Below the pieces are notes generated by a model. It was given only the letters and a program-made list of their open reading frames with translations, made no database searches and had not been told where the DNA came from. The translations under genes and the position numbers were made by a program. From Octopus vulgaris (lineage: Eukaryota): a stretch of 64,000 bases of DNA. The stretch covers positions 9,424,001-9,488,000 of the forward strand of contig OX597838.1 in the NCBI GenBank assembly GCA_951406725.2, read 5' to 3'. This document shows, one piece after another, positions 54-56,953 of the stretch. The number at the start of each line of letters is the position of its first letter. The stretch's first letter is position 1.

Positions 54-184
54 TGTTTCTTTCTATGGAAGAGCTTAGGCTCGAAACGTAAAATACTTTT
101 TCAATTCCCGAGCGTTATGCTAATACATCTGTTTGTTTTCTACACCACCTGTTTTCATCCTTTTTTTTTTCGTGAATTCTCCCT
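54..184 (+). mobile_element. short Penelope-terminus-like element with degenerate hammerhead (59-94)
   Basis: cttt-ctatgga-a-gagc ttag gctc-gaaac gt a-aaat, followed by a tail ending in (TA)n; homologous to 13389-13590 on the opposite strand. Confidence 0.6.
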
Positions 185-288
185 ATATATATATATATAT
201 ATATATATATATATATATATATATATATATATATATATATATATATATATATATACTTTATCTCAAAGCAGCAGAAATTCAACAAAAC

Positions 289-326
289 CTGTTACTCTGA
301 GTTTCACGTTCCCGTTCGTCGGACAG
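289..326 (-). ncRNA. minimal type I hammerhead ribozyme fold, CCGACGA core
   Basis: Reverse complement reads CTGT-CCGACGA-ACG GGAA CGT-GAA-ACTC A GAGT-A-ACAG; stems I, II and III all pair; GUA cleavage triplet. Confidence 0.7.
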
Positions 327-356
327 TTTGTTTTCTTTTTGTTTTTTTAACAAAAA

Positions 357-394
357 CTGTCCGACGAACGGGAACGTGAAACTCAGAGTAACAA
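357..394 (+). ncRNA. minimal hammerhead fold, CCGACGA core (inverted twin of 289-326)
   Basis: ctgt-ccgacga-acg ggaa cgt-gaa-actc a gagt-a-aca. Confidence 0.65.
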
Positions 395-520
395 TTTCTG
401 CTGCTTAAACATATTACTCTACCCCTGGTATTTGAGTATCTTTTTTCCACCTTGTTTCACATTTATGTGTTTACTCGGTAAATATATATATATATATATA
501 TATATATATATATATATATA

Positions 521-752
521 TATAATATTAATTAGAGACAAAACCACTATTTTGCAAAACAAACAAGGAAAGACTTAATCAATACATAAAATTTTAATAA
601 AAAGTAAATTTTTATTAAAATTTTATGTATTGATTAAGTCTTTCCTTGTTTGTTTTGCAAAATAGTGCTCTAATTAATATTATATACTATTTTTCTATAA
701 AATTGGATTTAATCCTTAATCTGATTTTTTTCCCTGTAAATTTGGATTTATT
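521..752. repeat. ~160-bp near-perfect palindrome plus short tail between (TA)n tracts
   Basis: taatattaattagag...cactattttgcaaaacaaacaaggaaagacttaatcaatacataaaattttaataaaaa is mirrored at ~609-684. Confidence 0.85.
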
Positions 753-52322: not shown

Positions 52323-52705
52323 CTAGCAGTATCGCCCGGTGTTGCTCGGGTTTGTAAGGGAAATAACTATAAAGCATTTTTAGAGAGTTATAGCAAAAAA
52401 TAGCAAAAAAATGGGAAAAAAATTATGGTAAATTTTTTTTGAGAGTTAAAAAGGTCGAGTTGCGTCCCCTAGACAGTCTGTGGTTTGTGTTTCTGATTCT
52501 CGACCCCATGTCGAATTTATCGATTTTTTTCAGAACTGGGGGAACTTTTCAAAATTTTCGGTCCGTTAGTTTTGAATTATGACATTGGGCTATGTGTGTG
52601 TCAAGTTTCATCAGAATTGGTTGAAAGCCGTGGTCAGGGTGAGGGTACAACCTGACAGACACACAGACACACAGACAGACAAACTGCCATTTATATAGAG
52701 AGAGA
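52323..52705 (-). mobile_element. non-autonomous Helitron
   Basis: The - strand starts A|TC (52705) and ends CTAG|T (52323); subterminal hairpin cccggtgttgctcggg at 52335-52350; (CAGA)n near the 5' end. Confidence 0.85.
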
Positions 52706-52829
52706 TAAGCTATTGGCCAAACCACGCCCACACGACACACATACGCACACACAGTCACTCTTACACTATACTCATCTCTACACATGGATACCTTTCTGTA
52801 CTGGCACACGGTAACCAGCTACGTCCTCT

Positions 52830-53073
52830 CTTCATAATTCCTCCCCATAGAACAGCATTTGAACCTGCTCCCTAAATCCTTTATTTCTTCTTTCGTGGTA
52901 CATCTCTTTCTTTCGTTTTTTCCTTCTTTCACTCCTTTCTTTTTTCTGATGAAGGACTGGCGTCCGAAACATCAAGATTTCTTTCCATTCTTGCAAAGAG
53001 TATACTAATAATACATTTATTACAACTTGTCCATCCCGTTGTTTCGTTTCCTTGTTTTTGCTGATAATACTGT
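52830..53073 (+). mobile_element. Penelope-terminus-like element with canonical hammerhead (52942-52977)
   Basis: tttt-CTGATGA-A-GGAC TGGC GTCC-GAA-ACAT-C-aaga; pyrimidine-rich leader and tail resembling the 24555/32219 family. Confidence 0.65.
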
Positions 53074-53879
53074 ACATATATACATACACATACATACATA
53101 TAAATATATGCATATATATATATATATGCGCGTGTGTGTGAAAACATATATATAAATATATATATATATGTACATATGCATGTATATATATATATGTATA
53201 ATTATATATAAATACATATTTATATACATGTATACATGGCATATACACACGCACACACACACACACACACATATATATATATATACATGTATACATGGTA
53301 AATATATATATATTTGTATGTGAATATATGTATATATCGTATACATTTCATATATATATATATATATATATATATATATATATATATATTATTATATGTA
53401 AATACATATAAATATATATACATGTATATACAGATATATAAATATATATATATATAGATGTGTGAATATATATTCATACATACATATATATATATACATA
53501 TATATATATATATATGTATGTATGCGTGTGTGTATGCAAACATATTTGTAAATACATGTGTGTCTGTTTGTGTGTGTAGGTATATATGTAAATAAACATA
53601 TTTGTCTATACATGTGTGTCTGTGTCTAATGGCTGCAAATACATACACGCGCTCGTACACACACACACACACACACACACACACACACACACACACACAC
53701 ACACATCCTTCTGCATTAAATCCAAGCTAGAATTTCGTCTAATTACGTCAGAGATATTGGAATCTTTCAGCCACTGTTTTTAAATGTAGGCCGTGCACAG
53801 ATAACTGGATTTAACATGGAACAGCGGCGGCGGCGACAAATGGCGGCGGAGGTGGGGGGGGCAGTGCCGTCGAGGGCGG

Positions 53880-54935
53880 TAGTGTGGGCGATGAGGCCCG
53901 CGTAGGTGACGGGGGCAGTGGCGGTGGTCACGATGGTGGTGGTACTGATGCTGATGATGGTGATGGTATTGACGGTGGCCGTGGTGTGACGATAGTCGTG
54001 GAGGCGGTGGCGACAGTGGTGACGGTGATAGTGATGGTGGTTATGATTATGATAGTGTTGTTGTTGTTGGTGGTGGTGGTGATGGTAATTATGATAGTGC
54101 TGGTGGTTGTGGTGGTGGTGGTGGTGGTGGTGGTGGTGTTAATTATGATAGTGCTGGTGGTGGTGGTGGTGGTGGTGGTGGTGGTGGTGTTAATTATGAT
54201 AGTGCTGGTGGTTGTGGTGGTGGTGGTGGTGGTGGTGGTGTTAATTATGATAGTGCTGGTGGTGGTGGTGGTAATTATGATAGTGGTGGTAGTGGTGATG
54301 GTGGTGGTGGTGGTGGTGGTGGTGGTGGTCCTGTTAATAGATCTGGAGTTGGTGTTGGCGGTGGTGATAGTGTTATATGTAGTGGCGATGGTGTTAGTGA
54401 TGGCGCTAATGGTGATGCTGCTGTTGCTAATGGTATAGGCTGTGATGATAGAAGCGGCGGTGGTAGTGATGGGGACGGTGGGGACGGCGGTGGTGGAGAG
54501 GCGAAGGTAACGACTTTGGTGGTGGCGGCAGCGGTGAAGGTTGGTGGTGGCAGTGTTGATGGTGGCGGTGGTGACGGTTGTGCTGTTGAGGGTGGTGGTG
54601 GTGGTGGTGGTAGTGGTGGTGTTGGTGGTGGTGGTGGTGGTCATAGTAGTGGCCGTTTCGGCGGAGAATGCTGCAGCGTTGGTGGTTGTGCGGTTACTGC
54701 TGCTGCTGCTGCTGCTGCTGCTGCTGCTGCTGCTTCCACTGCTGCTTCCACTGCTGCAGCTGCTGTTACCACCACTGCTACTGCTACTGTAGCTGACGAT
54801 AGTGTTTGCAGCGCCGGGTCGGTGGTGGCGACGGTGGCCGCGTTGGTGGTCGTTAGAATTATGGTGGTGTGGAAGCCTGTGATGATAATGATGATGATGG
54901 TGTAGGTGGTTGTGGTTGTGGTGGTGATGGTGTAG
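53880..54935. repeat. (GGT)n/(GCT)n low-complexity tract with ~50-bp repeat units
   Basis: taattatgatagtg(c/g)tggt recurs five times at 54085-54290. Confidence 0.9.
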
Positions 54936-55439
54936 TTACAGTAATGGGCTAGTGTCGGCTTTTCTTTTAAAGTACATTACTTTTTAAATGGTGGATAGAC
55001 AGACAGACAGGCAGGCAGGCAGACTGGCAGGCAGATAAATACAAATATATATATATATATATATATATATATATAGAGAGAGAGAGAGAGAGAGAGAGAT
55101 AGATAGATAGATAGATAGATAGATAGATAGATAGATAGATAGATAGATAGATAGATAACCAGTCACACAGATAGGCAGGCAGACAGACAGACATTGATTT
55201 ATACATACACACTCATATAAACATGCATACATATCGCGTATAAGCATACACTAACATTGTGTGTGTGTGTGCGTAAGCGTGTGTGTTTTGAATGAACATG
55301 CTATTTAGTATGTCACACGGCCATATGTACTTATATATGCATTAGCAGTCATAAACATAAAGGAGTAGTTTTTCACACACACACACACACACACACATAC
55401 ATATACAATAACACAAAGGGAGGAATTATAACCACGCGG

Positions 55440-56953
55440 TGAATTGTAATATAAAAAGTATATATAAAGTAAAAGTCTTAAGATTTTTAAAATACATTGT
55501 ATTGTGTTTGTCGACCGGTTTCGCCTTCTCTAAGCATGACATTGAACTTATTGTAATTTCTTACTTTCTTAAGAAAATTTCAGTCCATGTGTGGAGAAGT
55601 TTATGAACGAATGATTCAACAAGTAGAAAAATCTACGGGGAGGTAATTGATGATCGTCATTATTGGGGATAGAGGAGGTAATTGGTCATCTTTCGGGGAG
55701 GGGATAGATATACACAAAAACACAAAAGGTAAAGTAGTGAAAAGAAATATGAAGAGTATCTGATCATGAATTAAAATATATACTGAGATCAAAGTTGGTT
55801 ATGCGTTCATATTTAGACGTTTTCTGTATTTTTCAATGAATAACTTTTCTTTATTTAAACATTCTTGTATAGAAAGAAATTGTTTCTTTGCACTAGTAGA
55901 TGAGGAAAACTGTGAAATTTGGTTGGATATTACCTGCACATCTCAGTATGTGTTCACTCAAAAGAATCTGGCTGTATCGCAAGAACCGGATCTGTTCCTT
56001 ATGTAGTGTCGTTCTCCATCTCAGTGACATACTTATCTGTCCTATATAGTTATGTCCATGACCTTAGCAAGTTATAACATAAATTAGATTCTCGGAAGCA
56101 CAAGTGAAGTTGGTTTTATTTGTGAACCTTTCTCCTAGTTTGAATAGGAAATCCGAGCCTTGCAATACGTTGGGGCATGTTCCGCAGTTTGGCCGTCCAC
56201 ATTATTAAACGTTGGTTTCGTGGTTGTTTTGTAAAGCTTTGCATTTGTTAGAAGTCTTTTTAACGATTTGTGTCGCTTTTTGCATTTGATGAATTTATGT
56301 GTTTTCAGAATATTGTTCATTTTTGGATCTCACGTGAGCATGGGTAGATTTTGTACAATAGTGTTGTATGCCTCATTGTTTCTAGGGTTGTGAGTTGATA
56401 TATACAGTAGTGTTTTTAGTGTTACATTTTGACGCCCTTAGTGTTTTAATATCTAATTTCTTAGCACGCTTAATTCCATCATCTATAAGTGAGGGTGGAT
56501 ATTGTCTTTCAGTTAGTGTTGTTCTGAAGTCTTGAAGACGAAGGTCCCAAGTATTTCTATCAGACACTATTGTGCAAATCCTTTTTGCTAAATTAAAGGG
56601 GATATTTTCATGTGTTTCGGGTGGCATGAGCTAAACAGGAGATATTTCTTCGAGTCCGCTGGTTTATGATAAATGTCTGTTATAATTTGGTTGTTGATTT
56701 TTTAAATCATAATATCCAAGAAAGGGAGCTGTTCTTTGCTATATTCCATTGTAAATTGAATGTTAGGGTTTATATTATTTAGTATTGATTTAAATTCCAA
56801 ATTTTTATCAATGGTCTCCTTCCAAATGGCATAGCAGTCATCCTGGTATCTTTTCCAGTTCTCTCTTATATAATGGGGAAATGGATGTCCATATTTTTTC
56901 AGTGACACTTCATATATATGGTGAATTCAAAATAAGCCATTATTAGGTTCGCA
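55440..56953 (-). mobile_element. 5'-truncated decayed Penelope-like element (RT + GIY-YIG endonuclease)
   Basis: ANLIMAYFE; WKRYQDDC...LNNINPNIQFTMEYSKEQLPFLDIMI; TDIYHKPADSKKYLLFSSCHPKH; NIPFNLAKRICTIVS; FTCASENLIYVITC*GHGHNYIGQ...R...H (GIY-YIG); many stops and frameshifts; hammerhead 3' half gaa-accggt-c-gaca at 55509-55523. Confidence 0.92.

Follow-up and report, generated by a model that had tools for sequence, protein, structure and literature searches.

Hammerhead motifs with variant family cores in a 64-kb stretch of the Octopus vulgaris genome and their probable origin in Penelope-like element 3' ends

Hammerhead motifs in the window

The DNA analysed, referred to as the window, is a stretch of 64,000 nucleotides of Octopus vulgaris (assembly GCA_951406725.2, contig OX597838.1, positions 9,424,001 to 9,488,000, forward strand), in which short elements carrying minimal hammerhead ribozyme folds recur on both strands. 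The motifs are read here as 3' ends (pseudo-long terminal repeats, pseudo-LTRs) of Penelope-like elements (PLEs), most copies being short 5'-truncated insertions; as a whole, with the role proposed below for the hammerhead, we regard this explanation as very probable. Their odd catalytic cores appear mostly to be the consensus of a family and not decay.

A preliminary description made from the sequence had listed 16 sites, 14 as full folds and two as 3' halves, and each of the 16 shows the parts described there, in the order stem I, core, stem II, GAAA, stem III, NUH and stem I'. The 16 sites correspond to 14 insertions of 10 families, because two of the listed pairs (289/357 and 39578/39646) are the two arms of a single inverted insertion each. 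A fold at 26747+, passed over in that description together with a PLE reverse transcriptase (RT)-endonuclease relic at 55.8-56.95 kb (minus strand), represents an eleventh family. Numbered by the start of the core (N3; the preliminary coordinates mark stem I or the 3' end), the sites were 63+ and 13513- (family B), 24609+ and 32223+ (A), 20128- (A2), 52946+ (A3), 322-/361+ (F2), 2172- and 32467- (F3), 24465- and 24791+ (F4), 39621-/39653+ (F5) and 55537- (F7), with F6 at 43.7-43.9 kb and F8 at 26747+. The features were placed as follows (ORF, open reading frame; UTR, untranslated region; pLTR, pseudo-LTR).

47..183, plus strand: family B (A6U) PLE 3' end; decayed core 63-69, predicted cut after 90, then (TA)n
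258..481, no single strand: inverted pair of family F2 (U4C) arms set head to head, cores 322(-) and 361(+); a Hydra-type PLE ORF is linked to the family
2113..2307, no single strand: family F3 (canonical core) inverted pair with both arms damaged; 2172- without one A of GAAA, 2179+ without G8
13385..13580, minus strand: family B copy with intact family-type fold (A6U); core 13513, predicted cut after 13486
20060..20200, minus strand: A2, canonical core, stem I broken; core 20128; resembles family A over the motif
24240..24510, minus strand: family F4 (U3-A8) copy; core 24465 with private A6G, palindromic helix III of 10 nt
24535..24737, plus strand: U4C subfamily of A; core 24609 with a cut predicted after 24635, (TA)n at the end
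24790..24861, plus strand: fragment of family F4 (U3-A8), core 24791, with damage in stems I and II
26630..26958, plus strand: family F8; canonical family core, private U4C at 26748 in the window copy
32139..32353, plus strand: family A, U4C subfamily, intact fold; core 32223
32418..32558, no single strand: family F3; canonical core 32467(-); its own 3' tail stands before it in inverted copy and lengthens stem I
39492..39834, no single strand: inverted pair of family F5 (G3-C8) with cores 39621(-) and 39653(+); 3' ends both short and long
43657..43900, no single strand: family F6 inverted pair of 3' halves; family with canonical core, ~60-nt stem II and Hydra-type endonuclease link
52783..53065, plus strand: A3, old relative of family A; canonical core 52946, helix III decayed
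55400..55818, minus strand: family F7 3' UTR/pLTR; family core A3-U8; core 55537 with private A6C, stem II broken
55819..56950, minus strand: broken PLE ORF relic directly upstream of F7; RT thumb, CX4CxxC linker, GIY-YIG-type endonuclease

The 3' flank of A was related to that of A3 (z 8.1) and weakly to that of B (z 3.1); A2 at 20128 resembled A copies across the motif and did not pass the flank test against A. With A, A2, A3 and B taken as one clan, the listed sites form seven unrelated groups, so that the earlier figure of about eight unrelated families is reached only when F8 is included. Measured against their family, roughly half of the 14 full folds carry damage in the window: 63+ carries G5A, 2172- lacks one A of GAAA, 20128- has a broken stem I, 24465- carries A6G, 24791+ has lost stems I and II, stem I of 39621- is severed by the junction and helix III of 52946+ is no longer palindromic.

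Detection and abundance

Rfam at the gathering threshold gave no match in the window. A window descriptor in which one core change and 0-2 additional bases after A9 were allowed gave 8 matches, compared with a mean of 1.75 (range 0-5) in 20 block shuffles, and a descriptor with a looser stem II gave 15 compared with 5.3 (2-9) in block shuffles; with a first descriptor that lacked the extra base after A9, the window gave 7 against 3.8, no clear excess over shuffles. In 600 kb of the same genome sampled at fixed positions, 77 descriptor matches were counted against 24-38 in shuffled DNA. The folds are real: decisive proof comes from the membership of the sites in multi-copy families with a fixed fold, except for 20128-, which is recognized by its fold alone. 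The order helix I, core, helix II, GAAA, helix III, NUH, helix I' was present in all families sampled.

The fixed-position sample contained 36 motif copies from eight families, in agreement with the large and diverse population that had been proposed; extrapolated from this uneven sample, the eight families would hold very roughly 170,000 motifs genome-wide. Only 11 of the 36 copies matched the pattern CUGANGA, as had been anticipated for searches requiring it. For annotation this means that the CUGANGA pattern and Rfam overlook most such motifs.

Core consensus of the families

Copies were gathered by a query of GAAA plus 3' flank only, from loci partly fetched with core-containing queries, and core tallies were kept separate for loci fetched by core and those not fetched by core. 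Six families had a non-canonical consensus, namely a subfamily of A and F2 (both U4C), B (A6U), F4 (U3-A8), F5 (G3-C8) and F7 (A3-U8), while F3, F6, F8, A3 and the older A subfamily had canonical CUGANGA. If UUGANAA is admitted beside CUGANGA, F4 is covered as well, and A (U4C), F2, B, F5 and F7 stay outside. The 3:8 pair was Watson-Crick in every family consensus and took four forms (C-G, U-A, G-C and A-U). The cores had been called systematically non-canonical; this describes the six consensuses, but not the five canonical ones nor several window cores (63+, 24465-, 26747+ and 55537-) that are private decay. Reversion of all consensuses to CUGANGA, the outcome that the preliminary description had set against its own claim, was not seen, six staying non-canonical.

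In family A, CCGACGA was found in 34/49 copies not fetched by core and in 27/29 fetched by core. An independent marker divided the family into a younger subfamily with C4 in 66/67 copies (2.5% divergence) and an older one with U4 in 7/8 (6.5%), a count that omits three poorly aligned rows and one row with neither marker. No C-to-T change was seen at the CpG of C4 in the U4C subfamily, and one A subgroup had a broken stem I. Canonical A copies were considered as CpG decay of the U4C core, which was rejected as they form the separate, older subfamily; U4C copies as the majority of A were likewise rejected, the fixed-position sample holding 6 U4C and 6 canonical copies. Family A sequence was also present in sequencing runs labelled (labels as given) as four different organisms; among the runs matching a family A copy, none was recorded as RNA.

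Family B carried U6 in 47/47 copies, many of them from one subfamily-biased search, while N7 showed all four bases. F2 had CCGACGA in 32/42 copies, and F4, an old family (11% divergence) whose copies were all fetched by core, had TTGATAA in 14/27 copies with an intact 5' side. For F5, GTGAACA was found in 7/8 copies not fetched by core and 37/43 fetched by core. F7 had ATGATTA in 20/28 copies; its core lies between a 4-bp stem I and a stem II of 2 bp with GAAA loop, and its register is therefore independent of the 3:8 pair. Of the two sites taken for 3' halves, 55509- proved to be a complete fold in its family, with the A3-U8 core; the window copy at 43775- has indeed lost its 5' half, but its family, F6, is a canonical hammerhead with a ~60-nt stem II.

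Penelope-like parent genes

ORF-to-motif colinearity with PLE RT/endonuclease was found for five families (A, B, F2, F6 and F7), so that the check for linkage to PLE ORFs proposed with the preliminary description gave a positive result, and its option of extremely truncated PLEs is borne out for these five. In A, about 2 kb of CA-rich sequence lay upstream, preceded by a broken RT-linker-endonuclease gene, in 4/8 extended long copies and in a further fetched locus (L135), the endonuclease end being placed 1.6-2.3 kb upstream of the motif. In B, a PLE endonuclease was found 828-829 nt upstream in two independent loci. F2 had an upstream ORF (L356 and L359), with RWK and DKT motifs in the parent L356. 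In F6, one locus had a Hydra-type endonuclease upstream, and a second copy held the same junction in its inverted arm. For F7, the ORF end was on the same strand a few hundred nt upstream in 11/29 loci, plus the window, against a background of 5/60 ten-kb loci with any match; the window relic at 55.8-56.95 kb shared 42-46% identity with an intact PLE protein of 781 aa from the same genome. In L414 a PLE endonuclease lies 1 kb upstream of F6; it was set aside as a neighbour and not a parent, and single PLE matches upstream of F3 and F5 copies were discounted for inconsistent distances.

The genome is rich in GIY-YIG loci (of 6136 candidates, 150 were scored and 148 of these matched). The intact 781-aa ORF combines an RT domain (Pfam RVT_1, E 1e-6, just below the curated cut-off) with a C-terminal GIY-YIG domain (E 4e-7), and a U3-A8 hammerhead, of a family other than those of the window, stands in both flanking repeats (L159). 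Direct pseudo-LTRs around an intact ORF were seen for this L159 U3-A8 family only, with no intact copy for the window families. A U3-A8 hammerhead lay downstream on the same strand in 17/30 GIY-YIG loci. Intact 781-aa RT/GIY-YIG frames are numerous in a young PLE family (loci L159-L161), which also has an upstream ORF, 250-480 aa long, for which no convincing Pfam match was obtained.

Clade placement was by motif and not by tree. Pfam matched no family on the Hydra-type ORFs, the identity of which is taken from the motifs of PMC8557442 and weak tblastn links. Among endonuclease-positive PLEs (PMC8557442), the RWK and DKT given for the Hydra clade occur in the F2 parent and its CxCX5C in the F6 parent L442, this last motif being altered in the sole F2 copy seen; hammerheads of Hydra elements are reported as canonical, in contrast to U4C in F2. 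Neptune/Nematis elements have a CX2-5CxxC linker, and CX4CxxC occurs in the A parent L158 and in the window relic (F7), which would place these two there. The (TA)n targets and inverted 5'-truncated copies of that group are also found here.

Anatomy of the insertions

Copies had fixed 3' ends and variable 5' ends and were not permuted, and most 3' ends adjoined (TA)n. A and B had a single 3' end, whereas F2, F3, F5 and F6 each had two alternative 3' ends 60-100 nt apart (bimodal). A PLE with two reverse-transcription starts, giving a short end plus tail, has been described (PMC11167929), and the match with the two ends seen here supports PLE machinery for F3 and F5 too. Inverted 5'-truncated pairs were found for F2, F3, F5 and F6 in the window and also in fetched loci. 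No head-to-tail array of the listed motifs was present in the window, as judged from Tandem Repeats Finder (TRF) rows listed to 49.6 kb.

Among F3 arms, 32/61 started exactly at the first base of stem I, a figure that overstates independent events since both arms of pairs were counted, and 15/61 reached further upstream, up to 3 kb. F5 copies started ~20-25 nt before the core (with a query that took in 25 nt ahead of it), and upstream sequence shared over a longer distance, judged by eye, consisted of inverted arms, simple repeats or one local duplication. The 5' starts of A copies clustered at about -75 to -84. For F3, a splice acceptor at the edge of stem I, which has a precedent in D. virilis, was considered and dropped, as no shared upstream exon was seen. 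At L353:310-6550, two 3-kb non-coding F3 arms form a 6-kb near-perfect palindrome. At L095:150-330 and in the window at 32418-32558, the 3' tail from stem I onward is repeated exactly, in inverted orientation, upstream of the core, as if the new DNA strand had folded back on stem I.

Helix III and covariation

Helix III palindromes measured 4-16 nt across families. When two copies were cofolded, a dimeric hammerhead was the lowest-energy structure for F3, F4 and F7. In F6, 90.8% of cells paired and 11/28 pairs changed on both sides (at most 4 in slid controls), as counted from 16 sequences and uncorrected for relatedness; the other families were too young or outside the count.

Comparison with known hammerheads and elements

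A 2016 study by Lunse, Weinberg and Breaker reportedly describes PLE-associated hammerheads in very large number, with a reduced stem III and cleavage as dimers. The literature covered, with few subscription papers among it, held no report of natural A3-U8, G3-C8 or A6U hammerheads, that 2016 study being the likeliest precedent; the sole A6U match in print was for twister ribozymes.

The element class, the minimal fold, U3-A8 and the truncation pattern are already described. The minimal hammerheads of metazoan PLEs (PMC4209133) share with those studied here the short helix I, the extra base after A9 (several families), the palindromic helix III, the position 3' of the ORF and U3-A8, and likewise occur as thousands of mostly single truncated copies in many families, with opposite-strand pairs. 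The rows consulted in Fig. S3 of that paper have only CUGANGA or U3 cores, whereas G3-C8, A3-U8, U4C and A6U occur here as well; as the descriptor used there fixed the core, variant cores would not be expected in it. No cephalopod appears in its Table S1, within the accessible part of that source.

Poseidon of the green anole (PMC11167929) has the pseudo-LTR hammerhead, AT-rich targets and short end plus tail seen here, its tails measuring 30-40 nt as against about 60-100 nt here. Its hammerhead is protein-assisted, and C3G/G8C partly restores cleavage; G3-C8 is thus an engineered rescue in Poseidon and a natural consensus in F5. Natural precedents exist for U3-A8 and U4C, while G3-C8 is a partly active laboratory mutant of a PLE hammerhead. 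U3-A8 occurs naturally, U4C in a viroid is weak in vitro and still infectious, and A6C is weak (PMC3088659, PMC7151607). Natural core variants in these two papers, as far as accessible, are rare single examples, with A6U and A3-U8 not among them; the U10.1-U11.1 mismatch given there is shared by F3 and F6. Non-LTR retrozymes (bioRxiv 10.64898/2026.07.22.740005) are also non-coding and PLE-related with a type I hammerhead, but they are tandem units with a hammerhead in each, as opposed to the single or inverted copies with fixed 3' ends found here.

Other elements nearby

A small inverted repeat at 545-667 has a right arm that matches sequence in the GIY-YIG loci L114 and L164, and is probably the tail of a further PLE family, truncated downstream of its hammerhead. 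A fragment at 27117-27145 lacks a core and resembles family B in stem II and helix III; flanking sequence homologous to its own was not found. Another U3-A8 family with identical copies was seen in L066 (8667 and 9029, minus strand), L075 and L087; the two L066 copies lie 362 nt apart on one strand and may form a tandem unit. A Tc1/mariner-type DNA transposon with 223-bp terminal inverted repeats (95.5% identity) occupies 47335-48959, its transposase being split over two frames (Pfam HTH_Tnp_Tc3_2 and DDE_3).

Fragments of ORFs like those of long interspersed elements (LINEs) were located on the minus strand at 4860-5231, 6523-6927, 21804-22319 and 28676-29029, the last being the sole one with a Pfam match (RVT_1, below cut-off) among the three scanned (6523-6927 was outside the scan); these fragments may resemble R4/Dong and RTE elements. 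Two abundant families resembling short interspersed elements (SINEs), presumably octopus SINEs, were found at 3018-3138, 28934-29540 and 50704-51207, and at 17067-17502, 19321-19702 and 34700-35092.

Interpretation and alternatives

Identity as PLE 3' ends is documented by colinear genes for A, B, F2, F6 and F7 and is likely for the rest. Target-primed reverse transcription into (TA)n would yield short 5'-truncated copies, often as head-to-head inverted pairs. The predicted hammerhead would act, if at all, in tandem parent transcripts, in which dimers would form by pairing of two palindromic helix III strands, and the protein of the element would probably assist cleavage, as in the anole element (PMC11167929). 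Lone copies, having no partner, are likely inert, and an inverted pair would offer one sense motif and its antisense, giving a hairpin and not a dimer. The 3:8 swaps (U-A, G-C, A-U) would preserve a tertiary pair of the active core, so that selection for the cleaving shape, at reduced speed, seems likely in those lineages: the pair forms in the active conformation (PMC3884650), and its maintenance in four forms suggests selection for cleavage there. In contrast, U4C likely weakens and A6U likely cripples cleavage, such cores being judged slow or dead from the weak but viable U4C viroid variant and the weak A6C (PMC3088659, PMC7151607); masters with these cores would nevertheless have made many copies. 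The simplest account is that insertion would not need cleavage, which fits the unaffected insertion in vitro by hammerhead catalytic mutants (PMC11167929). The role of the hammerhead in PLEs is an open question in the literature itself, given poor in vitro cleavage and mutants that still insert (PMC4209133, PMC11167929).

Several observations weigh against this explanation. No PLE ORF link was found for F3, F4 (0/33 copies), F5, F8, A2 or A3, and the sequence upstream of F3 is non-coding over at least 3 kb. The parent ORFs of A, B, F2, F6 and F7 are all broken, with no active master seen, and the sharp 5' ends of F3 and F5 are unexpected from random truncation. Cofolding gave no hammerhead for A, B and F2, and the hammerhead obtained for F5 lacks helix III; the limits of the F6 covariation count, given above, belong here too. 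The step that cleavage is not needed is taken from a different PLE clade, in vitro, and cleavage here is a prediction from sequence.

The sharp 5' ends could be explained if F3, F5 and perhaps part of A were discrete short non-coding units, each a SINE-like pseudo-LTR derivative whose transcript begins with the ribozyme or slightly upstream of it and serves PLE protein as a template in trans. This is compatible with an origin as PLE 3' ends; it is possible, although we lean against it. It would account for the F3 arms that begin at the first base of stem I, for the F5 starts just before the core and for the clustered A starts, and in three F3 loci with both arms at stem I and a spacer between them, the spacer is consistent with one extra G per copied strand, which is what a capped RNA start would leave. 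The hint comes from three loci only, however, and the F3 tally includes both arms of pairs; 10 F3 arms reach the stem I base through a self-overlapping palindrome, so the pile-up could be annealing at the palindrome, while the arms that run up to 3 kb further upstream and the 25 upstream nt in the F5 query also speak against such units.

It is unlikely that the fold was kept in all families as a structural or protein-binding element with no variant cleaving. The two most abundant variant families are altered at U4 and A6, where changes lower activity (U4C and A6C in PMC3088659, A6C in PMC7151607), stem I is broken in a subgroup of A, and for the anole PLE no reads ended at the cut site (PMC11167929, in its accessible part); but a 3:8 pair of the active conformation (PMC3884650) that is Watson-Crick in every consensus, in four forms, and the partial cleavage of a G3-C8 double mutant of a PLE hammerhead (PMC11167929) speak against it. 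A life cycle as non-LTR retrozymes, with tandem units that self-cleave to monomers, circularise and reinsert, is very improbable: a palindromic helix III suits dimer cleavage, retrozymes are reported as derived from PLE pseudo-LTRs (bioRxiv 10.64898/2026.07.22.740005) and one F8 locus has three matches ~110-240 nt apart, whereas the window holds no head-to-tail array of the listed motifs (TRF rows to 49.6 kb), 3' ends are fixed with variable 5' ends and without permutation, and five families are colinear with PLE ORFs. For these reasons the label retrozyme-like, offered earlier as one of two options for the population, is not supported in general. As the origin of the odd cores, decay in dead copies or accidental agreement with a loose pattern is hardly tenable. 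It does hold for the single window copies 63+, 24465-, 26747+ and 55537- and for helix III at 52946+, and loose descriptors also match shuffled DNA, but the invariant U6 of B beside a variable N7, the C4 of the A subfamily without C-to-T at CpG and the G3-C8 of F5 in 7/8 copies found without a core query are contrary to it, and the family tallies refute it for A, B, F2, F4, F5 and F7.

Implications

The families may constitute a natural allelic series of the hammerhead active site in one genome, in which four 3:8 pairs, A3-U8 included, would have been kept for their continued cleavage as dimers, U4C and A6U lineages would have reached tens of thousands of copies while cleaving little or not at all, and some families would have spread as capped mini-transcripts from the first base of the ribozyme. 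This combined reading is put forward tentatively, its chances being judged somewhat short of even. The A sister subfamilies (U4 and C4) and the families with each 3:8 pair are ready natural test pairs. If the allelic-series reading is true, it would be in vivo evidence of a PLE hammerhead under selection in some lineages and dispensable in others.

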